A stretch of DNA of 44,612 nt from Escherichia phage vb_EcoS_bov22_1, in the sequence record NC_073084.1. One strand, written 5' to 3'. The notes beneath the pieces are model-generated. The model was given only the letters and a program-made list of their open reading frames with translations, was not told where the DNA came from and did no database searches. Numbering within the stretch: the first letter of the stretch is position 1; each line of letters begins with the position of its first letter. Made by a program: the position numbers and the translations under genes. Positions 1 to 44,612 of the stretch are shown here, piece by piece.

Positions 1-2
1 AG

Positions 3-524
3 TTCGGGCAGCAGTCCGCAGCTATCGAGCAGAAGATGACGTCTTCGTTTAACCACGCTGGTGGTAGCGCCACTTACAGCCTTAAGGCTGGCGTGACGTA
101 TAACGGGACTTACTATGATGCGGGTATGCAGCTTTCCGTTGTGACGTCTGGCAACGCAGTTAAATCGCGTATTGCGTTCAAGGCGGACCAGTTCTACATC
201 ATGCACCCATCTAATGGGTCGCTTTCGTCCGCGTTTATCGTAGACGGCGGGCAGGTGTACATCGACACGGCACGTATCAAGAACGCGTCAATCAACTTTG
301 CGCAGATCACGGACACGCTGCGGTCGAATAACTTCGTTGCGGGGTCGTCAGGGTGGAACCTGCCTAAATCTGGTAACGCGGAATTGAACAACGTAACGGT
401 ACGCGGCAACTTGTTCGCTACTACGGGGAACTTCGGATTCTCCGGCGGGTCCGTTACGATCGACTCAACGGGTGTTAACGTGCCATTACCTGGCGGGGGC
501 AGGGTGAAAGTCGGGACGTGGTAA
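3..524 (+). CDS. C-terminal part of tail-tip host-specificity protein (lambda J-like); 5' end is outside the window and appears to continue from the window end
   Basis: Frame open from base 3 with no upstream stop; stop TAA 522-524; same frame as, and 8-nt overlap (agttcggg) with, the J-like ORF running off the window at 44612. Confidence 0.6.
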   Translation, partial: FGQQSAAIEQKMTSSFNHAGGSATYSLKAGVTYNGTYYDAGMQLSVVTSGNAVKSRIAFKADQFYIMHPSNGSLSSAFIVDGGQVYIDTARIKNASINFAQITDTLRSNNFVAGSSGWNLPKSGNAELNNVTVRGNLFATTGNFGFSGGSVTIDSTGVNVPLPGGGRVKVGTW

Positions 525-1821: not shown

Positions 1822-3438
1822 ATGGCAGCGGGTACTTTATCCGTAACGAATAACAGCAAGGCGGTTGTAGGGGTAGGCACAACGTTTACCGCGTTTAAAG
1901 CTGGCGACTTCTTATCGCTGGTAGTGGGGCAAGTCCCTTACACTGTCGCTATTGCATCCGTAGAAAGCGACACGTCTCTTACGCTGGTGTTACCGTTCGA
2001 CGGACCAACGGCAACCGGCCTAGCCTGGGACGGCGTTAAGCGCGATACCATGTCATTGGCAACGATGGGCGTTACCGTACAGGCACAAAAAGCATTGCGC
2101 TTGATGATTGCAGATGAAAACAACTGGCGTGCAATCTTCGGCGACGCTGAAGAAATCACAGTGACGTTACCTAACGGGCAGGTTATGCAGGGCATGTCAT
2201 GGGGCTATCTGTCGCAGCTAATGAAGCAGATCGACCCTGTGGAGATGCGCAACCTGCAACAACAAGCAGCCGCATCGGAAGCAGCCGCGCAAGGATTTCG
2301 CAATGAGGCCGAAGGATTTCGCCATGAAGCCGAAGGATTCAAGGTGCAGAGCCTGGCAATCCTCAACAGCACGCAGGAGGTCCACGACGCCACCAGCACC
2401 ATCAAGGACCAGACGAACCAGATCAAGACGGATACGCAGGCCATCAAGGACCAGACGAACCAGATCAAGACGGATACTGGCGTTATTCGAGATCAGGCCA
2501 ATACAGCGAAGACGGACGCGCAAGCCGCCCGCGATGCCGCGCAGGGGTATCGGGATGAAGCCGAAGACTTCAAAAACGCGATCGACCCTACGCAATTCAT
2601 GAAGAAGTCGCAGAACCTGGCAGACGTCGCAGATAAATCGTCGGCACGCGCTAATCTTGGTCTGGGGTCTGTAGCTACGGAGAACACCGTACCCATCGGG
2701 AAAGGCGGCACTGCGGCGACAACGGCAGCGGCAGCACGCGCTAATCTTGGCGTTGGTGATGATAGTAACGTTAAACACGCAACATTACGTCTGAATGGTG
2801 GGGAGTCATTAGTATTCGATGACGTCGAAAGAAACGGCTTAGTTCTGTCTAACGTATCGTATGGGATTGACAGTTGGGTAGGCTTCACCATGCACAAATG
2901 GTACGCCGACTGGGTGCGCGCAGGCATTGTTCGCGCTGCTAACACTCAAATGTCGGACTACCGGATTCATACGTGGAAGAACGGTGTTTCCGAGGCGCTA
3001 TTCCGCTTCCTGCCGGACGGCAGGCTGATTCAGGGTAACAGCGGCAACCCTTCCGTAAATGAGTTTCAGAAAGCAGCGCTATCGGACCGCGACCTTAAAA
3101 AAGAAATCCAATACACTGACGGCGAGGAAAGCTACAACCGCGTTCGTCAATGGCTTCCGGCAATGTTCAAGTATAAGGAGTCTGACGTACAGCGATACGG
3201 CCTTATCGCACAGGACCTGGCAAGGATTGACCCAGAATATGTGCACTTGCTGCCGGGTTATGCCATTTATGAGGATATCAAGGGGGTGGACGAGGAAGGG
3301 AACGAAGTTGTAGTCGACCGAAAGGAGATCGGGTATACAGACGATGTGCTGTCGCTTGATAGTAACGTGTTGTTAATGGATCTGTGCGCCGCCTTCGTTC
3401 ACCTGTTGCGGAAAGTGGAGAAGCTAGAAGGTAAATAA
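1822..3438 (+). CDS. tail fibre protein with C-terminal intramolecular chaperone (peptidase S74-like) domain
   Basis: ATG 1822 with GAGGA RBS (alternative ATG 1795); internal coiled/collagen-like repeats (EAEGFR, IKDQTNQIKTDT); C-terminal SDRDLKKEI Ser-Lys motif typical of autoproteolytic chaperone domains. Confidence 0.75.
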   Translation: MAAGTLSVTNNSKAVVGVGTTFTAFKAGDFLSLVVGQVPYTVAIASVESDTSLTLVLPFDGPTATGLAWDGVKRDTMSLATMGVTVQAQKALRLMIADENNWRAIFGDAEEITVTLPNGQVMQGMSWGYLSQLMKQIDPVEMRNLQQQAAASEAAAQGFRNEAEGFRHEAEGFKVQSLAILNSTQEVHDATSTIKDQTNQIKTDTQAIKDQTNQIKTDTGVIRDQANTAKTDAQAARDAAQGYRDEAEDFKNAIDPTQFMKKSQNLADVADKSSARANLGLGSVATENTVPIGKGGTAATTAAAARANLGVGDDSNVKHATLRLNGGESLVFDDVERNGLVLSNVSYGIDSWVGFTMHKWYADWVRAGIVRAANTQMSDYRIHTWKNGVSEALFRFLPDGRLIQGNSGNPSVNEFQKAALSDRDLKKEIQYTDGEESYNRVRQWLPAMFKYKESDVQRYGLIAQDLARIDPEYVHLLPGYAIYEDIKGVDEEGNEVVVDRKEIGYTDDVLSLDSNVLLMDLCAAFVHLLRKVEKLEGK

Positions 3439-3443
3439 GGCGA

Positions 3444-3466
3444 AGGGGCCGTATGGCCCCTTTTTT
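3444..3466 (+). terminator. rho-independent terminator
   Basis: Hairpin aggggccgtatggcccct plus T6, right after the tail-fibre stop; near-identical to hairpins at 531 and 29161. Confidence 0.6.
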
Positions 3467-4040
3467 AGTTTGAGTTTTCCCAGTCCATTTTGCGCCGAAC
3501 CAGCGGGCTTTCGTAATATTCCTTCCCCTCCACTTCCACTAAGGGCCAGTCGTTAACAATCACGTACGGTTCCGCAATATCCTCAATCACGCCGTGCGCG
3601 CCATGTTGTCCGAACGATACGCCCACCAGAATAACACCGGCAACGCGACGGGTCAGATATTCGCGAGCGCAACGGGCCTCGACCAGTCCCCGACGTATGC
3701 CGCTGGTGGCCTTAACCTCGTAGGTCCAGACGGCATCGATCACATGCTCGCGGAAGTCGGGGCCGGATTTAACCTTGCGCTTGCCGACCATGATAATATC
3801 GCCGCGGTCAATGGTGTTGGCGCTAAACAGGCCGGTACGCATAAGCAAACCTTGCGGGATGCAACTACGCCCGCCCGCCTGCCCCTCAAGGTACATTCCT
3901 GCAAACATTTCGCCCAACACACCGACCAGTCGGCTTTGCTTGCACGCGTCAGACTTTAAGCGCCATTGATCAAACTCGATGCTTGCTATCATTGCCGCCA
4001 GGTGGAATTGTTTACCTGATATTTCATATTCGCCGTACAT
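3465..4040 (-). CDS. hypothetical protein (possible PD-(D/E)xK-type nuclease fold)
   Basis: 191-aa ORF; GAGGA RBS 8 nt upstream of ATG 4040; GDIIMVG ... EVK pattern loosely fits a D ... ExK nuclease core. Confidence 0.5.
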   Translation of the reverse strand: MYGEYEISGKQFHLAAMIASIEFDQWRLKSDACKQSRLVGVLGEMFAGMYLEGQAGGRSCIPQGLLMRTGLFSANTIDRGDIIMVGKRKVKSGPDFREHVIDAVWTYEVKATSGIRRGLVEARCAREYLTRRVAGVILVGVSFGQHGAHGVIEDIAEPYVIVNDWPLVEVEGKEYYESPLVRRKMDWENSN

Positions 4041-7609: not shown

Positions 7610-9030
7610 TTGCGCGCCTTTTTAGCTTTCATGTATTCCATCAAATCGTCCTGAATATCTCGCTTACTGTCACGACGCTCGGCGACCAATTCGTCCAGTG
7701 TCCCGCGCGCCTGGATAATGTAGACGAATACAGGTCTAGGGTGTCCGGCCTGCATCTGGCGAACCGGCCCGATACGTTCAACGATCTGCGAAAAGTGCTC
7801 AAAGTTCCAGGTATCAGAGAAGATTGCCAGGTGATGACCGCCGTCCTGCAAGTTAAGGCCGTGGCCCGCCGATGCCGGGTGTGCAAACATGATGGGGATC
7901 TCGCCCCTGTTCCACGCTTCCATATCCTTATTGCCCTGCTTACCCTTACCCAACGCAACGCCGTGCGGGAATTTCTTCTTGAGACGCGCCAGATCATGCT
8001 TGTACTGGTATGCGACGAGCAACGGTGCGCCGTTCAACTCCTCCACGATACTTTCCAGCGCGTCCAGTTTAGCGTCGTGAATTTTCACCCATTCATCGGT
8101 GCGCTCGCCGTCTTCGTCGACTTTATACACGGCCCCCGAAGCAAGCTGAAGGCACTTAATTGTCTTCGATGCCGCGTTCGCCGCCTCCACTGTTCCGCTT
8201 TCCAGTTCGGCAAATAGCTCGCTTTCAAACTGGTCATAAATCTTGCGCGCTTTCTTCGGCAGGTCCACGACAACCGGAGTATAGATTGGCTTGTCGCACC
8301 CGAAGTATTCAGCCGCGTCAACGGTTAGGGATACATCAGACAGGCGTTGTTGTATTTCTTTCTCAGAGTTCTTTAGCGGGGCGTGCTGCATAGTGAAGCT
8401 GCCAGGCTTAACAGGCTTGCTAATGAACCAGCGATCGGTAAACGCCTTATAGCTACTGCCGAGGCGTTCGCCACCGTCGACAAACCACGTCTGACCCCAT
8501 AAGTCTTTCAGCCCGTTTGGCGCTGGTGTGCCGGTCAGGTTAATCCAGCGCTTGACGTGCTTATGTGCGATCGCCGCCAGTGCGCGTGCGCGCTTACTAC
8601 CCTGCTTGCTTCGGTAGCCTTTCAGCTTAGTCGATTCATCGGCAACAACGACCGTAAAGGGCCATGCATCGCCGTAATAGTCAACCAGCCACTCAACCAC
8701 ATCATAGTTAACACAAACCACGTTAGCGTCGCTCTCAAGCGCTGCGATACGGTCCTTCTCCGGCCCAGTGCCGTCTACGACCAGTAGGGATGAGAACCGC
8801 CATTTCTCCTGCTCCGGGGGCCATGTACCTGACGCGACACGCAGCGGGGCCAGCACCAGTACGCGGTCCTCATGATGGGACAGGACGCCAGTCTGGAACA
8901 TTTTATTCAGCGCCCACATTGTCGCGCCGGTTTTACCGGATCCCATTGTCGCCCAGATATTACATCGCTTATGCTTGAGGATGAACGCGGTTATCAACTT
9001 CTGATATTCGCGGCGTCGGAATCGTGCCAT
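7606..9030 (-). CDS. SNF2/DEAD-like DNA helicase
   Basis: Walker A MGSGKTGA, Walker B/DEAD-like VVADESTK, LTGTP, helicase motif VI-like AGHGLNLQ; start chosen at ATG 9030 (MARFRR), immediately after the upstream stop. Confidence 0.8.
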   Translation of the reverse strand: MARFRRREYQKLITAFILKHKRCNIWATMGSGKTGATMWALNKMFQTGVLSHHEDRVLVLAPLRVASGTWPPEQEKWRFSSLLVVDGTGPEKDRIAALESDANVVCVNYDVVEWLVDYYGDAWPFTVVVADESTKLKGYRSKQGSKRARALAAIAHKHVKRWINLTGTPAPNGLKDLWGQTWFVDGGERLGSSYKAFTDRWFISKPVKPGSFTMQHAPLKNSEKEIQQRLSDVSLTVDAAEYFGCDKPIYTPVVVDLPKKARKIYDQFESELFAELESGTVEAANAASKTIKCLQLASGAVYKVDEDGERTDEWVKIHDAKLDALESIVEELNGAPLLVAYQYKHDLARLKKKFPHGVALGKGKQGNKDMEAWNRGEIPIMFAHPASAGHGLNLQDGGHHLAIFSDTWNFEHFSQIVERIGPVRQMQAGHPRPVFVYIIQARGTLDELVAERRDSKRDIQDDLMEYMKAKKARK

Positions 9031-12305: not shown

Positions 12306-13088
12306 TTAACGGCGGCGACGTTTACGTGGCGCTTCGTCTTCGTCGTCGTCCTCATCTTCGTCATCGCGTGGCTTACGACGTTTGCGAGGTTTTTCATCTT
12401 CCTCATCGTCGTCGTCATCGCGGCGCTTGGATTTCTTGGACTTGCGCGGCTTGTCATCTTCATCATCGTCATCACGACGTTTTGACTTTTTGGACTTGCG
12501 CGGTGCTTCGTCTTCGTCGTCGTTGTCCAGGTCTTCGTCGGAACATGAAGACCCGCCACCTCCGAAGGCTTCGCCGTCTTCACGGAATCGCAGACCCAGC
12601 AAGCCAGCCCCGAGACCCTTGCCGTTGGTATTGTTCCACGCCCAGATATCAAGGGACACGTTGCAATAACAACCGGAGTAGATCTCCTGGCCGTCAATCT
12701 CGTCGCCGTCGATGGTCAGACCTTGTTCGGTCTGCTTCTCGCCGAGTGACGTTTGAATGATAGGCTGTTTGAACGATTTGGCGTTGATATACAACATGCC
12801 TTCGAATTCTTCGGTCACTTCGTCACGCTCGTCACCGTCGCGGACTGCGCATTCCTTAGAATCCTGGGCGTAGTGGCGGTCCATCCACTTATCGGCATTC
12901 TTCTCGGATTTCAGCTTGTCGGTGAGCACTGCGCGCGCTGCCGCTTCCACTTTGTCCACCTGCGGATCTTCTTTATCCAGAAGAATCACGGCACGGTATG
13001 CCGGTTTTTGTCCATCCTGTTTAGGGGTATCACGTTCCCAGATTTTCAGGAAGCATACGCGCACATTTTTCAGGTTGACTTTAGCCAT
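12306..13088 (-). CDS. single-strand DNA-binding protein (phage type) with long acidic/basic repeat tail
   Basis: ATG 13088 (MAKVNLKN) with GAGGAA RBS; OB-fold-like body ending in DGEAFGGG; C-terminal repeats DDDDEDDKPRKSKKSKRR; usual partner of the RecB-like nuclease and polymerase A in phage replication modules. Confidence 0.6.
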   Translation of the reverse strand: MAKVNLKNVRVCFLKIWERDTPKQDGQKPAYRAVILLDKEDPQVDKVEAAARAVLTDKLKSEKNADKWMDRHYAQDSKECAVRDGDERDEVTEEFEGMLYINAKSFKQPIIQTSLGEKQTEQGLTIDGDEIDGQEIYSGCYCNVSLDIWAWNNTNGKGLGAGLLGLRFREDGEAFGGGGSSCSDEDLDNDDEDEAPRKSKKSKRRDDDDEDDKPRKSKKSKRRDDDDDEEDEKPRKRRKPRDDEDEDDDEDEAPRKRRRR

Positions 13089-15332: not shown

Positions 15333-15851
15333 TTAATCTTCCAGTTCGAAATAGGTTTCGACGATTTCTTTTAACTCTGTGTGGAAGTCTTCGACGTCGT
15401 CATCTTCCAGCTTGGCGATTGATTTGATCTCGAACGATTCCAGCAGGTCGTCGAATTCGTCGTTCGCGTCGTCGTCATCACCCCCGGCAATAATAGCGGC
15501 ATACTGTTTGATCTCGTCGCGCATCTCTGCCAGCGGATCGGCATCTTTCTTACCTTTGCCTTTCGCCGGGGCTTTTTTACCCTTCGCAGGTTTTTCGTCT
15601 TCGGCTTCTTCATCGTCGTCATCTTCTACGACTTCTTTTTTGGACTTACCTTTCGCCGGGGCTTTTTTAGATTTAGCCGGTTTTTCGTCTTCGGCTTCAT
15701 CGTCGCCATCTTCGACAACTTCTTTTTTCGCCTTAGACGGCTTCTTGTCTTCCTGTTTACCAACGGCAGCGCCAACGGTTTCATAATGCTTTGCAATGGT
15801 TTCCAGTGCTACTACGCCGCGAGTGATCAGGTTTACGATTTGCTCAAACAT
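15333..15851 (-). CDS. highly acidic protein with Lys-rich tandem repeats; first gene of the leftward early operon (candidate host-takeover or DNA-mimic protein)
   Basis: ATG 15851 with GGAGATATACC RBS (upstream part of the track ORF has no RBS); two ~30-aa repeats KKEVVEDxDDEAEDEKPAKxKKAPAKGKxKK; acidic C-terminus. Confidence 0.65.
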   Translation of the reverse strand: MFEQIVNLITRGVVALETIAKHYETVGAAVGKQEDKKPSKAKKEVVEDGDDEAEDEKPAKSKKAPAKGKSKKEVVEDDDDEEAEDEKPAKGKKAPAKGKGKKDADPLAEMRDEIKQYAAIIAGGDDDDANDEFDDLLESFEIKSIAKLEDDDVEDFHTELKEIVETYFELED

Positions 15852-18933: not shown

Positions 18934-18954
18934 GAATAGTTATGCATTGAAACT

Positions 18955-19126
18955 GCATAAACTAAGCGGGACAAAAAGCGGGACAAACAAGGGGCGGGAC
19001 AAAGCGGGACAGCACCCCCGTCCCGCCCCGGATGACGCGGCTTCCAGAGGAGCGGGACAGCGGGACAGCACCCCAGTCTTTCAGACTAGACGGGGGTCAA
19101 CGGCCCCCCTCGTCTGAGACTGAATA
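18955..19126 (+). repeat. structured repeat element, copy A: GCGGGACA iterons plus GC-rich hairpins
   Basis: Six direct GCGGGACA-like copies and one inverted; 10-bp stem GGGGCGGGAC/GTCCCGCCCC; second hairpin AGACGGGGG ... CCCCCCTCGTCT; nearly identical to 36128-36301. Confidence 0.7.
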
Positions 19127-19282
19127 AAATCCGGGGATTGCAAAACACACGGCAGCATGATGCGAAGTGCGGTCGCGGATGAACTAGGCAACCAATGCTA
19201 GTAGCATTATGCTGAGTGAAAAATGCGGTTTGCAGTTGCAGCAGATAGCGATCAACTTTTTCATGCGCGTTATTAATATTGG

Positions 19283-20269: not shown

Positions 20270-20820
20270 AATTACTATTCCGCCGTAAGCACGATGGCCG
20301 CATCCTGAAGCCGATCCAGACCCTTGAGGCGCACGTCCGTTTGCACCACGAAGCAAGCGATCGCGTCTGGTGGGCGAAGAAAGACAAGCTGCCGGAAAAC
20401 TTCGACGTACTCACACACGATATTGCGCGCGGCGATGTGCTGCGTGACCTTCGCGACGGGCAATTGTGGGTTGTGGAGCACACCTCCCAGCTCGGCTTGC
20501 GGTTGAAGTCCGGTATCTTGTTGAAGGGGATGACGTACTTCGGCCTCGTAAATTACGAGCGAGTGGGTCGCAAATACAGCCTTCGGGACCGCCAGCCTCA
20601 TGAGCGCGTGGAGTTCCGCAAGTCGCAGCCCGCGTATGCCACTTACGACGCGAGCAAAGTGATGGAGCCGATCCGCCAGGCCACGCGTGAGAGAGTCAAT
20701 CGCTTTGATGCCGTGACGAATGCACAGCGCCATGCGCAGGAATACGGCGTTGGATTCATCCGTGTCGAACCAGACGGCAGCATGAAGGCCATCGACCCGC
20801 GCTCGGTGATTCTGAAATGA
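20266..20820 (+). CDS. hypothetical protein
   Basis: 184 aa; ATG overlaps the upstream stop. Confidence 0.6.
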   Translation: MKLLFRRKHDGRILKPIQTLEAHVRLHHEASDRVWWAKKDKLPENFDVLTHDIARGDVLRDLRDGQLWVVEHTSQLGLRLKSGILLKGMTYFGLVNYERVGRKYSLRDRQPHERVEFRKSQPAYATYDASKVMEPIRQATRERVNRFDAVTNAQRHAQEYGVGFIRVEPDGSMKAIDPRSVILK

Positions 20821-24065: not shown

Positions 24066-24182
24066 ACCGCATAGCCTGCCGATTTGGTGGGCTTTTTTGT
24101 GCCTGTTATAATCCCCCTTAGATGGCAGGGCCGTCTCCTATGTTGCCGATGGTCGGCGCATATGAACAAAAGGGCTTATATC

Positions 24183-24734
24183 ATGGCAGAAATCAAAGTT
24201 AAGGGCCGACGCGCCAAACTGGACGGACGAGTAGCAGTAACCCCGCGCCGTAAACCAGGCGAGCAAACCGAGCATACCAATCTCGGACCTGAAATCGAGT
24301 ACGGAAAGCGCCGTAAAGGCGGCAAATGTGGACGCCCTACTGACTACCGATCCGTTTACTGCGACCAGCTTCGCCGCTATTTTGCCGACGCCGACGCCTG
24401 GCAGGTAAACTACTCCGATAAAGGCGCTGCGCAAGTAATCCCCCGCAACAAAATGCCAACCTTCGGTCGATTTGCCGCGGAAATCGGCGTGGGCGTAGCT
24501 TGCCTGTATCGCTGGGCGCGTGCGCATGAGGAGTTCGCCGAGGCGATGGCTGACGCTATGGAGCTACAAAAAACCTTCCTGATGGAAGCTGGCGGCGTAA
24601 CCATCGCGGCGGGCTTCGCTACGTTCCTGCTTAAAGCAAACCACGGCGTCCGCGACGATGTACCGCTGGATGACGACGAAGATGATAACGGCGACGTAGT
24701 TGTCGAACCTTCCGGCAAAGGTCAGGGTGAATAA
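24183..24734 (+). CDS. terS: terminase small subunit
   Basis: MPTFGRFAAEIGVGVACLYRWARAHEEFAEA HTH typical of small terminase subunits; acidic C-terminus; start at ATG 24183 (AAGGG RBS) not the track start 24084. Confidence 0.7.
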   Translation: MAEIKVKGRRAKLDGRVAVTPRRKPGEQTEHTNLGPEIEYGKRRKGGKCGRPTDYRSVYCDQLRRYFADADAWQVNYSDKGAAQVIPRNKMPTFGRFAAEIGVGVACLYRWARAHEEFAEAMADAMELQKTFLMEAGGVTIAAGFATFLLKANHGVRDDVPLDDDEDDNGDVVVEPSGKGQGE

Positions 24735-26119
24735 TGCGTAACTATGCGGCAGAACACCGCGCACTGGAACGCGCGATCGCAAAGCGTAACCTACCGCCAC
24801 GCCCGACACGCGTTGCGCAGGCCGTCCGCCTTTACCAGCCAGATTGCCTTCCGCACCAGGTCGAACTGCTGCGTGACACGAAGACTAAAATCCTCGGCCT
24901 GTGTTCCGGCTTCGGTGGTGGGAAGTCATGGGTCGCAGCCCGTAAGGTAATCCAGCTTTTAACACTGAACCCTGGTCATGATGGCATCGTAACAGAACCG
25001 ACTATTCCACTCCTGGTTAAAATCATGTACCCGGAATTGGAAAAGGCATTCGACGAGGCGGGCTTCAGGTGGAAGTTCAATAAGCAGGACAAGATCTATA
25101 ACGTGCTTGTGAAAGGCAAATGGACCCGCGTTATTTGCGAGTCAATGGAGAACTACACACGTCTTATCGGTGTTAACGCCGCGTGGATTGTTGCCGACGA
25201 GTTCGACACCACGAAGCAAGACGTTGCAATGGCGGCGTATCACAAATTGCTCGGTCGTCTGCGTGCGGGCTTGGTACGCCAGTTCGTCATCGTGTCCACC
25301 CCGGAAGGCTACCGGGCGATGTACCAGATTTTCGAAGTGGAGAAGGACAGCCAGAAACGTTTGATCCGGGCGAAGACCACGGACAACCACCATTTACCGG
25401 CGGACTTTATAGACACGCTGCGCAGTCAGTACCCAGCTAACCTGATCGACGCGTACCTGAACGGCCTGTTTGTTAACCTTACGTCGGGCGCGGTGTACAA
25501 GATGTTCAACCGCGAGGAGAACGCCAGCACCGAAGAAGTGCAGCCGGACGACACACTGATTATCGGTATGGACTTTAACGTCACGAAAATGGCGGCGGTT
25601 GTGTATGTCAGACGGCAGCGCGTCACCGAAAACAAGGAGTTCCGCGACGAGATTCACGCGGTGGATGAATTTGTGGACCTGTTTGACACCCCGGCTATGA
25701 TTGAGGCGATCGAGGAGCGCTACCCGGAACATTGTGCCGCCGGTAGGGTCGTCGTTTACCCGGATAGCAGCGGCAAATCCCGCAAGACGGTCAACGCGTC
25801 GTCGTCCGATATCGCACAACTGGAAGACGCTGGCTTCGAGGTGGAGTATGACAGCGTTAACCCGCCTGTGAAAGACCGACTGATCGCGATGAATACGATG
25901 ATGTGCAACTCGAAGGGCGTGCGCCAGTATTTTGTCAACCTGGATAAATGCCCTACACTAGCGAAATGTCTGGAACAGCAGGTGTACGACCTGAAGAAAG
26001 GCGAACCGGATAAAACGGCCGGGGTGGACCACATGAATGATGCAGCGGGCTATCCAATTGCGCACCTGTTCCCAGTGATTCGTCCGATCGCCGTTGTTCC
26101 AACTGTAGACTTCTACTAA
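24734..26119 (+). CDS. terL: terminase large subunit
   Basis: Walker A GFGGGKS, Walker B IVADEFD; 461 aa; directly follows terS. Confidence 0.85.
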   Translation: MRNYAAEHRALERAIAKRNLPPRPTRVAQAVRLYQPDCLPHQVELLRDTKTKILGLCSGFGGGKSWVAARKVIQLLTLNPGHDGIVTEPTIPLLVKIMYPELEKAFDEAGFRWKFNKQDKIYNVLVKGKWTRVICESMENYTRLIGVNAAWIVADEFDTTKQDVAMAAYHKLLGRLRAGLVRQFVIVSTPEGYRAMYQIFEVEKDSQKRLIRAKTTDNHHLPADFIDTLRSQYPANLIDAYLNGLFVNLTSGAVYKMFNREENASTEEVQPDDTLIIGMDFNVTKMAAVVYVRRQRVTENKEFRDEIHAVDEFVDLFDTPAMIEAIEERYPEHCAAGRVVVYPDSSGKSRKTVNASSSDIAQLEDAGFEVEYDSVNPPVKDRLIAMNTMMCNSKGVRQYFVNLDKCPTLAKCLEQQVYDLKKGEPDKTAGVDHMNDAAGYPIAHLFPVIRPIAVVPTVDFY

Positions 26120-26129
26120 GGAAACGACC

Positions 26130-27650
26130 ATGACCGTTAACGTTGACAACCAGCACCCGCTCTATGCGCGCATTGCGCCAGAGTGGAAGATGATCCGCGA
26201 TTGTGTAGCAGGGGAGCGCGCCGTGAAGGCGTGCGGCCCTTTGTACCTGCCTCATCCCGCCAGTGGCGACAATACTGACCCGAAAGCACGGGCGCGGTAT
26301 AAGGCGTACAAGCAACGCGCGGTATTCCTGAACGCCACCGCCCGCACACTAAACGCGCTGTTAGGCGTCGCCTTTGCAAAACCTGTAAGTCTGGACCTTT
26401 CCGGGGTGATGGCTGACCTGATTGACGACGTAGACGGCAGCGGTATGCCATTGCCGCAACTTCTGCGCGGTGCTATGTCGGAAGTTCTGCAATCGGGACG
26501 CGCGGGCTTTATGGTGGACTACGACCGCCAGGCTAACTTTGATGAACTGGGTAACGTAGTGCCACAGACAGCCGCCGAGATGGCGGCACACCGACCGCTT
26601 ATCCGCCTGTATACGGCAGAGCAGATCATCAACTGGCGGCAGACCCACGGCGTCGATACGCTAATTGTGCTGAAGGAAACGGACGAAATCAGCACCGAAG
26701 ACCCTGACGATTTCGCAAACCACGAAGTAACAATCTGGACCGAGCTTCGCATGATTGACGGCAAGGCACACGCCCGCCGCTGGTTTTACAACGCGGACAC
26801 GTCCGAAGTGAAGATGGACTTGCCGCGAGGCTTCACCAGAACCGATCTTGTGCCGTTGGTGGATGCTTCCGGTAATGCGCTTACGCAACTACCGTTTTGC
26901 TGGTGCGGTGCGGTGGACAACAACGCAACGCCTGACGCCGCTCCGCTGGCGGATATCGCATCCATCAACATTAAGCACTACAACGCCGAAGCGGACGTCG
27001 CCGAGATCGCGCACATCGTGGGTCAGCCTACCCTGGTTGCGACGGGCTTGACTCAATCATGGGCTGACAAGAACCTGAAGGGAGGCATTGCCCTCGGTGC
27101 GACTAAGGGCGTTATCCTGGGCCAGAACATGGACGCTAAACTGATCCAGGCGGAGGAGCGCAACTTGTCGGTTGCACTGTGTGAGCGTCGCGAATTGCAA
27201 ATGGCTAAACTTGGCGCGGCCCTGGTCGAGAAGGGGACCGCACCTAAGACGGCAACCGAGGCGGCCTACGATGCGCAGACTGATAACAGTATCCTGTCGC
27301 TTATTGCCGGTAACGTTGAGAAGGCTTTCAACCGTGCGCTGCAAATCGTCCAACTCTTCACCGGTGACACCGCCGACCAGCGTGTGACGCTGAATAAGTT
27401 CTACACCGAGATCACGGTTGATGCGCAGCTTATGACCGCGATGATGTCGGGTGTGCAGACGGGTACGGTCCGCCTGGCTGATTTCATCAAGTGGATGATG
27501 GCGCAGGGTGTCATCGACGACTCGCAAACCGTCGAGCAGGTTGAAGACGAATTGCGGAATCAGAATCCATTGCCTCAAATGTCCCCTGATGCGGTAGAAT
27601 CTACCGAAGAAGACCCGGACAAGGTAGCGGACAATGGCGAAGACAATTAA
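26130..27650 (+). CDS. portal protein
   Basis: 506 aa immediately after terL, AAGGAAA RBS; acidic C-terminus; call rests on position and size. Confidence 0.7.
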   Translation: MTVNVDNQHPLYARIAPEWKMIRDCVAGERAVKACGPLYLPHPASGDNTDPKARARYKAYKQRAVFLNATARTLNALLGVAFAKPVSLDLSGVMADLIDDVDGSGMPLPQLLRGAMSEVLQSGRAGFMVDYDRQANFDELGNVVPQTAAEMAAHRPLIRLYTAEQIINWRQTHGVDTLIVLKETDEISTEDPDDFANHEVTIWTELRMIDGKAHARRWFYNADTSEVKMDLPRGFTRTDLVPLVDASGNALTQLPFCWCGAVDNNATPDAAPLADIASINIKHYNAEADVAEIAHIVGQPTLVATGLTQSWADKNLKGGIALGATKGVILGQNMDAKLIQAEERNLSVALCERRELQMAKLGAALVEKGTAPKTATEAAYDAQTDNSILSLIAGNVEKAFNRALQIVQLFTGDTADQRVTLNKFYTEITVDAQLMTAMMSGVQTGTVRLADFIKWMMAQGVIDDSQTVEQVEDELRNQNPLPQMSPDAVESTEEDPDKVADNGEDN

Positions 27651-32416: not shown

Positions 32417-32917
32417 ATGTATGGCGACCCGCAAACCTTTGTTATTTATGCCGCTGCGCGAGGCGTTGAAATTACGCCGAGCGACGCAACGCGACACCTT
32501 ACTATCGTTAATGACTTCCTTAACGGCATAGACTGGATCGGCGAACAAGCAGACCCGACCGGAATTGACGCATGGCCCCGCGTCAACTACCCGTCAGACG
32601 GTAAGCCGGTGCGAAACACGCTTACTGAAGATTTGGCAGTAGTTCCCGCGGGGCAGATTGTAGACTTCGCATCAATCCCTGTCGCCGTTGAGCAAGCCGT
32701 TTACCGGCTGGCAATGTTGGTGGCTGACGAGGTCGATATTTCTCCTGTTGGCAGTGGTAAGGAGACTATCCGCGAGACTGTTGGCCCGATCACGATGGAA
32801 TATGACCCCGCGACGATTGGTAGCGGCGTCTCGTTCCCGTGGTGGGATGGCTTGCTGGGCCACTGGGTGAACGTAGACGGCAACGCAGCGGGTAATTTTG
32901 ACGTATTCCGGGGGTGA
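32417..32917 (+). CDS. head completion / head-tail connector protein (putative)
   Basis: 166 aa from ATG 32417 with TAGGAG RBS; call by position only. Confidence 0.45.
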   Translation: MYGDPQTFVIYAAARGVEITPSDATRHLTIVNDFLNGIDWIGEQADPTGIDAWPRVNYPSDGKPVRNTLTEDLAVVPAGQIVDFASIPVAVEQAVYRLAMLVADEVDISPVGSGKETIRETVGPITMEYDPATIGSGVSFPWWDGLLGHWVNVDGNAAGNFDVFRG

Positions 32918-32918
32918 T

Positions 32919-33089
32919 ATGAATCCTGCATTACTGGCGGCTATTATCGCCGCAAATACTAAGCACCAACCAGAACCAGAGCCGGAACCAGAACCAGAGC
33001 CGGAACCAGAGCCGGAACCAGAACCAGAGCCGGAACCAGAACCAGAGCCGGAGCCACCGGTACAGGAGGATGCTAATGGCGGGCTTTAA
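32919..33089 (+). CDS. small protein with (Pro-Glu)n dipeptide repeat
   Basis: ATG 32919 with GGGGGTGA RBS; MNPALLAAIIAANTKHQ followed by about 17 PE repeats; overlaps the next gene start. Confidence 0.45.
   Translation: MNPALLAAIIAANTKHQPEPEPEPEPEPEPEPEPEPEPEPEPEPEPPVQEDANGGL
32968..33056 (+). repeat. tandem hexanucleotide-type repeat (ccagaa/ccagag/ccggaa units) encoding the PE tract
   Basis: Direct reading: gaaccagagccggaaccagaaccagagccg repeated. Confidence 0.7.
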
Positions 33090-35982: not shown

Positions 35983-36120
35983 AGCGGGACAAAACGGGAT
36001 GTCCCGTTTTGTCCCACCCCACAAATGTGCATATCTAATCACTTCCATTGCATAATCTAAAAGCGGGACAATCGGGACGTCCCGTTTTGTCCCACCCCAC
36101 AAATGTGCATACCTATTCGG
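35983..36120 (+). repeat. two tandem ~79-bp units, each with a 30-bp GGGAC-based palindrome next to a promoter-like TTGTCC-17 nt-TATCTA/TACCTA
   Basis: Perfect inverted repeat gggacaaaacggga-tg-tcccgttttgtccc at 35986-36015; degenerate copy 36065-36093; each followed by accccacaaatgtgcata. Confidence 0.6.
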
Positions 36121-36127
36121 ATTTCGT

Positions 36128-36301
36128 GCATAAACTAAGCGGGACAAAAAGCGGGACAAACAAGGTGCGGGACAAAGCGGGACAGCACCCCCGTCCCAGC
36201 CAGTGCTGCCGCGGTTTTTAGCCGATCGGGACAGGCGGGACAAACCCCAGTCTTTCAGACTAGACGGGGGTCAATGGCCCCCCTCGTCTGAGACTGCATA
36301 A
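36128..36301 (+). repeat. structured repeat element, copy B (GCGGGACA iterons plus hairpins)
   Basis: About 70 nt then about 60 nt near-identical to 18955-19126, with a divergent central segment; in the second hairpin the single C/T difference falls in the loop. Confidence 0.7.
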
Positions 36302-40432: not shown

Positions 40433-41173
40433 ATGCTAACGAAGAAGGTTAAACGCGATATTGCCGCACACGTTGCGGCATGTCTGCCGGAAGAAGCCTG
40501 CGGGCTGGTCGTCATGGTGGGCCGTAAGCAAGTATTCGTCCCGTGCCTGAACGTCTTCGAAGACCCCACCGGCGCGCGCTCTCGAAAAGATGCGTTTACA
40601 ATTAGTGATATGGCCTGGATGGATGCCGAGGATATGGGCGACGTTGTGCGCGTAGTACACTCGCACCCAGGTCAGCGCGAGTTAACCCCGTCATTGGGCG
40701 ACGTTAATGGATGCAACGGCAGCGGCGTCGTCTGGACCATCACTAACGAATATGGCGACTTTATCGAGATCGACCCGGAAGACCCGCCGCTGGTAGGCCG
40801 CCGATTTGTTCTCGGGGTTACGGACTGCTACGGCCTCGTCATGGCATGGCATAAAAAGCAGGGCGTAAACCTGCCAGACTTCCGCGTACCGTATAACTGG
40901 TGGGAGACAGGCGAAAACCTGTATATGGACAATTGGTATGGCGCGGGCTTCCGGGAGTGTGAGGAGAATACGCCGGGGGCAATGGTCATCATGCAGATCA
41001 GCGCGCCAGTGCCAAACCATGCCGGAATCTACCTTCCAGGCAACCAACTACTGCACCATATCTACGGCAGCCTGTCGAGCGTCATTCCCTTCCGGGCAGG
41101 ATTTTTCCGGGACAATGTGGTTAAATGGGTACGTCATAAAGACCTACCGGGGAATATCACAGAATGGCAATGA
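40433..41173 (+). CDS. tail assembly protein K-like (MPN/JAMM plus NlpC/P60-like domains)
   Basis: EACGLV ... VHSHPGQ ... D (JAMM-like) and TDCYGLV ... H (NlpC/P60-like Cys-His); AAGGGG RBS. Confidence 0.7.
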   Translation: MLTKKVKRDIAAHVAACLPEEACGLVVMVGRKQVFVPCLNVFEDPTGARSRKDAFTISDMAWMDAEDMGDVVRVVHSHPGQRELTPSLGDVNGCNGSGVVWTITNEYGDFIEIDPEDPPLVGRRFVLGVTDCYGLVMAWHKKQGVNLPDFRVPYNWWETGENLYMDNWYGAGFRECEENTPGAMVIMQISAPVPNHAGIYLPGNQLLHHIYGSLSSVIPFRAGFFRDNVVKWVRHKDLPGNITEWQ

Positions 41174-41781
41174 CCACATTTAAATTATACGGCGTTTTAG
41201 GACGTCGATTCGGTAAAGTGCACAAGCTGGACTGCTTTACACCGGGCGAGGGTATCACCGGCCTGTGCGTGAAGTTACCGGGCTTACAGGACTTTCTAAT
41301 GTCGGCACACCTGGACAACATGATGTTCAAAGTGCGCAAGGGCAATCACACTATGACCGGCTACGACGAGTTGGGTGAGTTCCACGGCGACCGCGTAGTG
41401 ACCATCGCGCCGGTTATGACTGGCGCAAAAAGCGGACTGGGCCAATTGCTGGCGGGTGTCGCAATCGTGGTGGCGTCGTTTTATACCGGCGGGCTTGCGA
41501 CTGCCGCTTTCGGAGCTTCAGCGGCGACCGCGGCCGCTATCGGCGCCGCGACGTTTTCGTTTGGGATGTCGATGGCGCTGGGCGGCGTTATGCAATTGCT
41601 GTCCCCGCAACCGAAAGGATTGCAGACAAGGCAGGATGTGGATAATAAGGCGTCTTATGCGTTCGGCGGCCCAGTAAACACGACCGCGCAAGGCACGGCA
41701 CTTGGGGTATTATGGGGAGAGCGTGAGATCGGCGGCGCTATTATTTCAGCCGGAATCGTAACCGAGGATTTGAACGAATGA
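41164..41781 (+). CDS. tail assembly protein I-like
   Basis: 205 aa with Gly/Ala-rich hydrophobic C-terminal half; position between K-like and J-like genes. Confidence 0.65.
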   Translation: MAMTTFKLYGVLGRRFGKVHKLDCFTPGEGITGLCVKLPGLQDFLMSAHLDNMMFKVRKGNHTMTGYDELGEFHGDRVVTIAPVMTGAKSGLGQLLAGVAIVVASFYTGGLATAAFGASAATAAAIGAATFSFGMSMALGGVMQLLSPQPKGLQTRQDVDNKASYAFGGPVNTTAQGTALGVLWGEREIGGAIISAGIVTEDLNE

Positions 41782-44612
41782 CGATTGTCTATGATGTCAC
41801 AGGCCATAAAGGCGGCGGTGGCAAACAGCACACCCCACAGGAGACACCAGATAGCCTGCATTCGCTGGCTAAAATCCGCATCTTGCTTGCGCTGGGAGAA
41901 GGGGAGTTCGAAGGTATTCCAGACCCTAACGAATTACGGCGGCGCGTATATCTGGACGGAACACCGATCCAGAATGCAGACCTGTCTGAAAACTTCCCAG
42001 GCGCGCGTGTGGAGTTCCGCCCCGGAACACAGCACCAGGATGTGATCCACGGATTTTCAGCGGTGGAAAGTGAGCAATCTGTCGGCGTAAAACTGGAAAA
42101 CGGCACGCCGTGGGTGCGCCAGATTAACGACACCAGTTTGGACGCCGTGCGCATTCGCATCGGCATTCCGGCCCTGTACACAAACGAAGATAATGGCGAC
42201 CTGGTGGGCGGGCGCATCGACTATAAGATCGTTGTGTATACGGATAACGCGGACCCGCGTGAGTTCAGATTCGCCGCCGTTGGTAAAACAATGTCGCTGT
42301 ATGAGCGCGACCACCGCATCGAATTACCTCCGAACGTTAACACCGGCTGGCGCGTGGAGGTGCACCGCATAACGGCAGACTCCACATCGGCGAAAGTGGT
42401 TAATGATATCCGGGTGCAGTCCATCACTGAGATTATTGACGCCCGCCTGCGTTACCCGCTAACCGCGCTGTTGTTTGTGGAGTTCGACGCCAAAGCGTTC
42501 CAGAACATCCCGCGCGTGTCCATCAAGTGCAAAGGCCGCAAAGTTCTAATACCGAACAACTACGATCCGATTAATCATACCTATTCCGGGGACTGGGACG
42601 GCACGTTTAAACGCGCATGGACGGATAACCCTGCGTGGCACTGGTACGATATTTGTATTACTGAGCGCTTCGGCCTCGGTCGGCGTATCAAACCGCAAAT
42701 GTTAAACCGGTACGCGCTCTACCAGATTGCGCAGCGCTGCGATCAGTTGGTCAGCGACGGCAACGGCGGTAGAGAAATCCGCTTTAAGAACGATATGTAC
42801 ATCCAGTCGCAGACAGACGCCTGGACCGTGCTTAAGGATTTAGCAGCTATCTTTGCCGGTATGACCTGGTGGGGAAACCAGATGTTGAATATCGTAAGTG
42901 ACCAGCCGGTCGCAGCGGTATCGCACACTATCACCAACGCCTCGGTTATTGATGGCAGATTCGACTACGCGTCCGGTAGCCAGAAAACTCGGTATTCCAC
43001 ATTCGCGGTAGCATACGGCAACCCGAAGAACCACTATGAAGATGCCATTGCTACGGGTCAGCGTGTCGAACTGGTACGCCGCCATAAGATTAACCGTCTG
43101 GATATAACGGCGATCGGCTGTACGCGTGAGTCAGAAGCGCAACGACGTGGGCACTGGGCGCTAATCTCCAACCAGCTTGACCAGCAAGTTAGCTTTAAGG
43201 TTGGCATGGAGGGACTTTTCTTTATTCCGGGTAGCGTAGTCGCGATCGCCGATACAAACATTTCTGGCGGCTTCGAGACACGCGGCGGTCGCCTGTTGTC
43301 GGACCCTGGCACGCGGACGGTGCTGAACACAGACAGCGAAATCACGTTCCGCCCCGGTGATAAATTCCTGGTGCGCACCGATAGCGGAAATGTGGAGACT
43401 CGCGAGATTGCCAGCGTCAACGGCAACAAGGTTACGCTAAAAACCGCACTGGATGCCGACCCGATCCCAGATCAACCGTTTTGCGTGGATGGCAACGATA
43501 TCCAGTTGCAGAAATTCCGCATCACCGACCTGGAATATGACGACTCTACCAGCACTTTCTCGGTGCGCGGGATCGAGTACAACGATAGTAAATACGATGC
43601 CGTTGATAATGGCGCTCGCCTTGATCCGGGCATCTTCACGCAAGTTCCTGATGGCGTAATGAAGGGGCCGGAATCCGTGACCATCACTCCGTCGCAGATT
43701 TCATCGCAAGGCCAGCTAATCACCAACGTGGATATTGTATTCCCGCCGGTGAAGGACGCCGTTGTGTATGAAATCCAGTGGCGACGCACCAGCTTGCAGA
43801 ATATGGAAATCCAGTGGGGTAACGACTGGGTGAATATTCCGCGCACGGCGTCGAATGGCGCGCATATCCCAAACGTGTTTTCCGGTAACTATCAGGCACG
43901 CGTTCGCGCGATCGGTATGGGCGAGATTTCATCACCGTGGGTGTCGTCCGCTATCACGCCGGTGGAAGGTCGTCTCGGAGGTCTTAACGCACCTATCATC
44001 ACCAACGCGATTTCGGGCCTTCATCAAATTTTGTGGAAGTGGAACCACAACAACGCCGCGACGGATATCTCTTACACCGAGCTTGAAGTGCGCAAGACTG
44101 GTGAAACGGAATGGAAGTTTCTTACAAACGTCCCATATCCGGGGGCGGAGTATGCCCAAACGTCGCTGGAGTTCGGGATCTATCAGCAGTTGCGCACCCG
44201 CGTAGCGGATAAAATCGGCAACCTGTCGGACTGGTCTGCCCCATTTGAAGGCCAGGTGAGTGACAAAGTTGACGAGTACATGAAGGGGCTTGACGACGAG
44301 TTCTTGACTTCTGAGGATGGTAAACGCTTCCAGGAAGCGATCGACACCATTCCGCAAGGCATTTATGAAGCCATGCTCACCGACGCACAGCAATTGTTTA
44401 ACGCCCGCACCGAGTACAAGGGTATTTATGCGGAAATCTCGGTCGCGTATAACGTGGCGGCGGACGCCCACAAGGCGGTCGCTCAACTGGAGACGTTGAT
44501 CGGCACGAGACTGGACGATGCTGAAGCGGCGATCCACACGCTGCAGACGGCGCAGAGTACGCACGAACAAGCGTTCGCCCAGTACCAACAAACTGTTGCC
44601 GCTAAGTTCGGG
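41778..44612 (+). CDS. tail-tip host-specificity protein J-like (3' end beyond window, apparently continuing at base 3)
   Basis: ATG 41778 overlapping the upstream TGA; open frame of 945 codons to the window end with no stop; the six-frame track omitted it because it has no stop inside the window. Confidence 0.8.
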   Translation, partial: MTIVYDVTGHKGGGGKQHTPQETPDSLHSLAKIRILLALGEGEFEGIPDPNELRRRVYLDGTPIQNADLSENFPGARVEFRPGTQHQDVIHGFSAVESEQSVGVKLENGTPWVRQINDTSLDAVRIRIGIPALYTNEDNGDLVGGRIDYKIVVYTDNADPREFRFAAVGKTMSLYERDHRIELPPNVNTGWRVEVHRITADSTSAKVVNDIRVQSITEIIDARLRYPLTALLFVEFDAKAFQNIPRVSIKCKGRKVLIPNNYDPINHTYSGDWDGTFKRAWTDNPAWHWYDICITERFGLGRRIKPQMLNRYALYQIAQRCDQLVSDGNGGREIRFKNDMYIQSQTDAWTVLKDLAAIFAGMTWWGNQMLNIVSDQPVAAVSHTITNASVIDGRFDYASGSQKTRYSTFAVAYGNPKNHYEDAIATGQRVELVRRHKINRLDITAIGCTRESEAQRRGHWALISNQLDQQVSFKVGMEGLFFIPGSVVAIADTNISGGFETRGGRLLSDPGTRTVLNTDSEITFRPGDKFLVRTDSGNVETREIASVNGNKVTLKTALDADPIPDQPFCVDGNDIQLQKFRITDLEYDDSTSTFSVRGIEYNDSKYDAVDNGARLDPGIFTQVPDGVMKGPESVTITPSQISSQGQLITNVDIVFPPVKDAVVYEIQWRRTSLQNMEIQWGNDWVNIPRTASNGAHIPNVFSGNYQARVRAIGMGEISSPWVSSAITPVEGRLGGLNAPIITNAISGLHQILWKWNHNNAATDISYTELEVRKTGETEWKFLTNVPYPGAEYAQTSLEFGIYQQLRTRVADKIGNLSDWSAPFEGQVSDKVDEYMKGLDDEFLTSEDGKRFQEAIDTIPQGIYEAMLTDAQQLFNARTEYKGIYAEISVAYNVAADAHKAVAQLETLIGTRLDDAEAAIHTLQTAQSTHEQAFAQYQQTVAAKFG

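Follow-up and report, generated by a model that had tools for sequence, protein, structure and literature searches.

The closest known relatives of Escherichia phage vb_EcoS_bov22_1 are other phages of the genus Dhillonvirus (HK578-like), for one of which the J-like tail tip protein gp24, the counterpart of lambda gpJ, has been solved (PDB 23gd; 1148 aa, two repeat units). Headful packaging was reported by PhageTerm for the Dhillonvirus Opt-212 and for UDS3lw, in the latter case with a pac site; for vb_EcoS_bov22_1 itself the PhageTerm result was 'circular permutated' (PMC8407724). The Dhillonvirus isolates of the cattle study from which this phage comes were described as differing by 'a gap of 30 or 89 bp' (PMC8407724), and its own genome (GenBank MT884014, 44,612 nt) was called "partial" by the authors (PMC8407724). 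The bov22 stock was a mixed lysate that had not been plaque-purified and also contained an rV5-like phage; the libraries of the study were prepared with Nextera XT and PCR-amplified, and the genomes were assembled with SPAdes 3.10.1 (PMC8407724).

We analysed the sequence record NC_073084.1 over its whole length of 44,612 nt (the window). A first-pass annotation, made from the letters of the record alone, had taken the window for a probable complete circular or permuted genome linearised inside gene J. Here we compare its ends with those of related genomes and of simulated and independent assemblies.

The ends of the window and the frame of J

The features at the two ends of the window are as follows.

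1 to 8, + strand: AGTTCGGG, the contig's first bases and 3' end of J repeat unit 2 (MT884012.2 20595-20602)
3 to 524, + strand: the last 173 codons of gene J and its TAA (3' part), with the Phage_Tail_Tip domain
41164 to 41781, + strand: tail tip assembly protein I (identical to QNR53727.1); no complete CDS follows it before the contig ends
41778 to 44612, + strand: codons 1-945 of gene J (central tail fibre / tip attachment protein), its 5' part, running open off the end of the contig
44517 to 44612, + strand: J repeat unit 1, 96 nt, encoding DAEAAIHTLQTAQSTHEQAFAQYQQTVAAKFG
44605 to 44612, + strand: AGTTCGGG, the contig's last bases and 3' end of J repeat unit 1 (MT884012.2 20499-20506)

The identity of bases 1-8 with bases 44605-44612, which had been the starting point for a circular reading, was confirmed; both are AGTTCGGG, and comparison of the window ends showed this to be their sole exact overlap. 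A search of the ends for an exact or approximate overlap longer than 8 nt found none. The bases flanking the two copies are unlike on both sides (A versus C on the left, G versus C on the right), and the maximal repeat is therefore exactly 8 nt. Given the base composition of the window, an 8-nt end identity would arise by chance with a probability of 1.6e-5, and we therefore conclude that it is not a chance identity. The reading of J across the ends was equally accurate: the ORF beginning at ATG 41778 has 945 stop-free codons up to base 44612, and the same frame resumes at base 3 and runs to TAA at 522-524. When base 44612 was joined to base 9, so that the 8-mer was collapsed, a clean ORF of 1116 aa resulted, the length that had been proposed for the joined tail-tip protein; abutting base 44612 to base 1 broke the J frame.

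The joined protein contains the J domain set, FNIII-A_GpJ at residues 96-222, Phage-tail_3 at 344-496 and Phage_Tail_Tip at 950-1086 (E-values, in that order, 6e-40, 2e-17 and 7e-38, all past the Pfam cut-offs). J matched PDB 23gd over the full 1148 aa of that protein, and lambda gpJ (PDB 8iyk, 1132 aa) over residues 13-713 with E = 2e-88. Upstream of J lie genes for TMP_2, Phage_min_tail, Phage_tail_L, Prok-JAB/NLPC_P60 and I. Domain order, homology to a solved J and position at the end of the tail module thus all place the protein among the lambda gpJ-like proteins. The ends behaved differently when they were judged as those of a circular assembly: the terminal repeat, which should be redundant sequence as long as the assembler's k-mer or no shorter than 20 nt, is 8 nt only, and the join, which should be lossless and colinear with close relatives, lacks 88 nt relative to the siblings described below.

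The missing 88 nt and the tandem repeat in J

When the window was compared by megablast with 50,697 phage records, MT884014 not among them, four Dhillonvirus records from one Hungarian cattle study, MT884012.2, MT884013.2, MT884015.2 and MT951623.2 (bov11C2 / bov16_1 / bov25_1D / bov15_1), matched the J-region ends of the window at 100%. In all four records, as in every relative listed, 88 bases separate the window's last base from its first; in MT884012.2 these two bases are 20506 and 20595. The full-length comparison was made with MT884012.2 (44,700 bp), and the window proved to be this record rotated and without positions 20507-20594, with 7 mismatches (44,700 - 88 = 44,612), an identity and synteny that place it in the genus Dhillonvirus. 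The proposal of a whole genome linearised inside J was therefore right as far as colinearity goes, but the ends are not a circular overlap, since 88 nt of J are absent between the window end and the window start. One position at which the window differs from MT884012.2 is a SNP at 41041, where the window's state is common to three Logan runs and so does not single out one of them as its source. The J region has about 93% nucleotide identity to SO-1 and the BASEL Dhillonviruses, and the repeat region about 90% to HK578. A search for a prophage origin gave no junction matches in 5,426 complete E. coli genomes.

The protein accessions follow the same pattern. Protein I of the window, QNR53727.1, is the last accession of the bov22_1 block, and the bov25_1D block begins with QNR53728; there is no J accession for bov22_1, and among the bov records 1148-aa J accessions come from the four siblings only. 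As a separate observation, bov11C2 is also listed at 44,612 nt in Table 1 of PMC8407724, yet its J (QNR53604.1) is the full 1148 aa; QNR53604.1 is the last accession of the bov11C2 block, so that version 1 apparently already had a complete J. This points to an error in the table or to a more complicated version history.

Together with one 8-mer, the 88 missing bases form a unit of 96 nt. In relatives this unit (unit 2, encoding EQEAAIQQVQTATADVAGALAEYKTQVAAQFG) follows unit 1, and its first 88 nt are not in the window. Aligned in register, units 1 and 2 have 52% nucleotide and 47% amino acid identity, which none of 20000 shuffles equalled. Both end in AGTTCGGG, and both lie directly N-terminal of the Phage_Tail_Tip domain. 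J thus carries a 32-codon unit in two tandem copies, a duplication that is old and imperfect. The frame is kept across the window ends because the 8-mers are the in-register ends of successive 32-codon units; preservation of the frame, which had been offered in favour of the join, accordingly lends it no independent support.

One-unit and two-unit forms of J across phages

A 248-nt probe across both units showed the two-unit form to be colinear in 153 of 158 related records. The usual J is 1148 aa rather than 1116, and most listed cluster members have that length. Among the related records, a one-unit J of 1116 aa occurred only in slur05 and slur06, which have the identical protein. Their J DNA reads GTTGCCGCTA joined to AGTTCGGTCAGCAGTCC, which is the collapsed junction, here inside contiguous records. 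The joined protein of the window aligned with the slur05/06 J with 1094 identities in 1116 residues (98%) and no gaps. Alignment to J homologues, which had been suggested as a check on the joined ORF, was colinear, yet nearly all of them had 32 residues for which the joined ORF has a gap. In slur05 and slur06 the collapsed 1116-aa form is a real allele, and one-unit J proteins therefore occur in deposited phage isolates; the form may also be present as a sub-population in the bov22 sample.

One-unit (delta-96) alleles were sought with a two-unit query together with degenerate junction patterns; in a ranking of phage records by a collapsed-junction query, two-piece matches came first. In bov22_1 the delta-96 junction would read GCCGCTAAGTTCGGG joined to CAGCAGTCC, with the spanning sequence GCCGCTAAGTTCGGGCAGCAGTCC, and the two-unit junctions GCCGCTAAGTTCGGG joined to GAACAGGAAG and GCGGCGCAGTTCGGG joined to CAGCAGTCC. 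In IMG/VR the delta-96 pattern was present in one contig (43,900 nt, like slur05), compared with 12 contigs for the two-unit junction, and JGI metagenomes gave no match to the delta-96 junction. No exact copy of the joined 1116-aa protein (bov background) was present in a collection of 15 billion proteins, nor were the 945-aa and 162-aa J fragments.

Simulated and independent assemblies

De Bruijn graphs were built from circular versions of the genome with k = 55, 77 and 127. Either allele alone (k of at least 55) gave a closed cycle without ends. When the two-unit and delta-96 alleles were combined, the longest unitig at k = 55, 77 and 127 was 44,612 nt and equalled the window, starting with AGTTCGGGCAGC and ending with GCTAAGTTCGGG. 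We also considered a three-unit (duplication) allele as the cause of the break and rejected it: combined with the two-unit allele it gave 44,704-44,804 nt with other ends, lengths and ends unlike those of the window.

As a proxy for the reads we used Logan assemblies of the original runs, made with another assembler at k = 31 and reached through an exact-protein index. From SRR13132429, the run of bov22_1, contig SRR13132429_23 starts with agttcgggcagcag, at the same base as the window, and contig SRR13132429_0 ends with gccgctaagttcggg, cutting J at codon 945 as the window does. The Logan and SPAdes assemblies of this run are independent algorithms applied to the same reads. The Logan contigs of SRR13132431, SRR13132426 and SRR13132428 carry the 1148-aa J without interruption. 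Of the 44,700 possible placements of an 88-nt gap, only 11 have matching 8-nt ends. A break that is specific to one run and flush with microhomology bears the mark of a 96-nt indel bubble left unresolved. The first-pass annotation had seen in the cut inside J an effect of headful packaging, a view that does not fit a break whose two ends both coincide with the repeat and which is specific to one run.

SPAdes leaves an overlap of k-mer size on a homogeneous circular genome, and version 1 of bov25_1D, at 44,747 nt (44,670 + 77), has such an overlap of 77 nt.

Two further observations were made on the Logan contigs. SRR13132431, which was declared to hold a T4-like and an rV5-like phage only (bov10K1 / bov10K2), yielded a Dhillonvirus contig, SRR13132431_0, of 10,884 nt with a complete 1148-aa J; this contig reflects either an undeclared third phage in the stock or bleed of reads between libraries of the same run. 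In addition, the lateral tail-fibre gene is reached by three Logan k = 31 contigs, all of which stop in it at one point. That gene contains an exact 37-nt direct repeat (2399-2435 and 2441-2477, 42 nt apart), which is probably why they stop there.

Packaging genes

The genes that bear on packaging are the following.

24183 to 24734, + strand: small terminase subunit, terS
24734 to 26119, + strand: large terminase subunit, Terminase_6N / 6C
26130 to 27650, + strand: portal protein (DUF4055; phrog_145)

The terS gene, on which a headful or permuted genome had been argued, is indeed present, but a terS cannot separate pac from cos packaging. TerS gave weak matches to P22 gp3 and Sf6 TerS, below the Pfam cut-offs; TerL is a generic Terminase_6N/6C protein, and a sequence search of the PDB found no TerL relatives. 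The permuted genome itself finds support in the PhageTerm reports in the literature, but not as the cause of the break point: permuted or headful packaging would explain why the genome assembles as a circle, and does not explain the position of the cut.

Receptor locus and other repeats in the window

Downstream of J the window contains the following features.

524 to 554, no strand assigned: G+C-rich hairpin with a T-run, placed between J and the RBP gene convergent to it, with a 94%-identical copy at 3437-3467
552 to 1517, - strand: DUF6453 protein, receptor-binding protein (RBP) locus downstream of J (PF20051, E = 2e-117)
1520 to 1741, - strand: lipoprotein, probably for superinfection exclusion (annotated lipoprotein; PF24052 Phage_lipoprotein; context)
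1822 to 3438, + strand: lateral tail fibre; chaperone domain of the Peptidase_S74 type; 37-nt direct repeat at 2399-2477

The role of the DUF6453 locus is taken from the homologous Oekolampad RBP. In Dhillonvirus the RBP reads the terminal porin receptor. The two hairpin copies follow J and the lateral tail-fibre gene, each between convergent genes, and are probably bidirectional terminators around an RBP / lipoprotein / fibre cassette.

Repeats also occur elsewhere in the window. The box GCGGGACA is present in 15 copies against 2.0 expected (none of 100 shuffles reached 15), and 13 of the 15 are on the + strand in the intergenic stretches 18966-19067 and 35984-36242. Both regions share a direct repeat of about 175 nt, about 90% identical (18954-19127, 35992-36138 and 36127-36301), and the second lies directly upstream of the tape-measure gene (36365). 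These arrays look like candidate regulator binding sites or promoter elements. Positions 32950-33074 contain about six copies of a tandem 18-nt repeat, AACCAGAACCAGAGCCGG, which if translated would give a Pro/Glu-rich linker and is potentially another length-variable region; the 30-bp gap of bov25_1D relative to its siblings falls within 8,811-8,970 of that record (about 32,917-33,076 of the window) and overlaps this repeat. In minus-strand genes at 12322-12540 and 15539-15718, GTC/GTCGTC-rich repeat families are found, the latter as a 90-nt tandem pair; in two proteins of the early region they probably give rise to acidic stretches of low complexity, rich in Asp/Glu.

Discussion

We consider it very probable that the window is a SPAdes contig broken at a two-allele bubble in J, with 88 nt left out. 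This explanation brings together the missing 88 nt, the repeat structure of J, the one-unit allele found elsewhere, the run-specific break and the simulation. According to it, the bov22_1 stock (SRR13132429) would have supplied reads of two J alleles: the usual one, with two units, a J of 1148 aa and a genome of 44,700 bp; and a second with one unit, a J of 1116 aa and a genome of 44,604 bp, from which exactly 96 nt would have been lost through recombination or slippage at the 8-nt microhomology. The two alleles would form a bubble in the de Bruijn graph, and because its arms would be too unequal in length for merging, the assembler would put out the shared path only, from the second 8-mer to the first. 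Such a path would be 44,612 nt long, with an apparent overlap of 8 nt and 88 nt missing. Heterogeneity of this kind is plausible because the bov22 stock was mixed and not plaque-purified. From the topology of the graph we infer that SRR13132429 contains delta-96 reads, and we take these to be biological rather than the product of cross-library bleed. Bleed is nevertheless a possible source of the second allele, which then need not have come from the same lysate. Two observations count against the two-allele explanation: the joined 1116-aa protein was not found on the bov background, and bov11C2 is listed at 44,612 nt in spite of its full-length J.

Two other explanations are unlikely, in our judgement to the same degree. 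The first is that of a homogeneous circular or permuted genome, 44,604 bp after collapse and with a J of 1116 aa, cut at an arbitrary point. Consistent with it, the join obtained by collapse keeps the frame, contains every domain of the J set and aligns without gaps to the J of slur05 and slur06. However, the graph of a homogeneous genome is a closed cycle, on which SPAdes would leave an overlap of k-mer size, placed anywhere, rather than one of 8 nt at a repeat. The Logan contigs of SRR13132429, moreover, break at both 8-mers, the authors themselves described the assembly as "partial" (PMC8407724), and the additional 96 nt are present in four near-identical siblings and in 153 of 158 relatives.

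The second, of similarly low probability, is a pure artefact, in which only the two-unit allele existed and the break arose from PCR or library chimeras, bleed between libraries or a dropout of coverage. The Nextera XT libraries were PCR-amplified, a Dhillonvirus contig occurs in a run not declared to hold one, and no assembly has ever yielded a delta-96 protein on the bov background, all of which would fit. Chimeras formed at 8 nt, however, would be expected in all five libraries of identical sequence, whereas the three others that were checked read through J; and at 71x coverage one would hardly expect a rare chimera to come through the graph cleaning of two assemblers. A dropout would not place both ends flush with the 8-mers, which only 11 of 44,700 placements do, and the same deletion is fixed in slur05 and slur06. 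That the 8-nt identity is a feature of virion DNA, a short terminal repeat or cohesive ends, with the window ends as true genome ends, has nothing but the identity itself in its favour and is exceedingly improbable, since the ends would fall within an essential structural gene, found contiguous in over 150 relatives, PhageTerm indicates circular permutation here and headful packaging in relatives, and J would miss 88 nt.

If a bubble between two J alleles is indeed what broke the contig, the J repeat of Dhillonvirus could be a recurrent hotspot for in-frame indels, with delta-96 having arisen independently in the slur05/06 lineage and in a bov22 sub-population; we put this forward tentatively. 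Were it true, natural lysates would contain central fibres of 1148 and 1116 aa, and the two fibre lengths might affect host range or evasion of J-targeting defences (Bil ubiquitin-like conjugation). If the delta-96 allele dominates SRR13132429, the 1116-aa J would be the true consensus of the bov22_1 isolate. The phage genome was already known and published, and the finding is largely an ordinary one; what is new, to a mild degree, is the probable coexistence and recurrent origin of two length alleles of J. There is also a caution in it: a short end identity and a kept frame resembled proof of a closed circle, yet marked a gap of 88 bases, and collapsing the ends would have given a J 32 residues shorter than in nearly all relatives. 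A short direct repeat with which both ends of a contig are flush can thus be read as a sign of an indel bubble, or population heterogeneity, without raw data. A by-product of modest importance is the possible length polymorphism of the central tail fibre in a phage group considered for O157 biocontrol.

Comparison with known systems

The sibling bov records come from the same study and the same farms as the window and have the same gene order (seen in full for MT884012.2). They differ from it in holding the 88 nt, in their length of 44,670-44,700 bp and in a J annotated at 1148 aa, and they have been re-oriented to start 76 nt upstream of terS, at position 24107 of the window. The J of slur05 and slur06 (CUL02151.1 / CUL02207.1, 1116 aa) has the same one-unit form and the same microhomology, GCCGCTA followed by AGTTCGG, as the collapsed window; these phages, however, belong to a different lineage, with about 93% nucleotide identity in the region, and in them the deletion is fixed and assembled through rather than placed at contig ends. 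Lambda has the same Pfam domains in gpJ and the same M-L-K-I-J gene order, whereas the C-terminal region of lambda gpJ aligns poorly and has no counterpart of unit 2 (MAFFT); unlike in lambda, in Dhillonvirus a separate RBP, with its gene downstream of J, reads the terminal receptor. With the usual k-mer overlap of circular contigs the window shares a terminal direct repeat and a genome that assembles as a circle. The usual overlap, however, is k (55, 77 or 127) of redundancy, whereas that of the window is 8 nt around a gap; its terminal 8-mers, unlike a circular overlap, are best understood as the branch points of an indel bubble.
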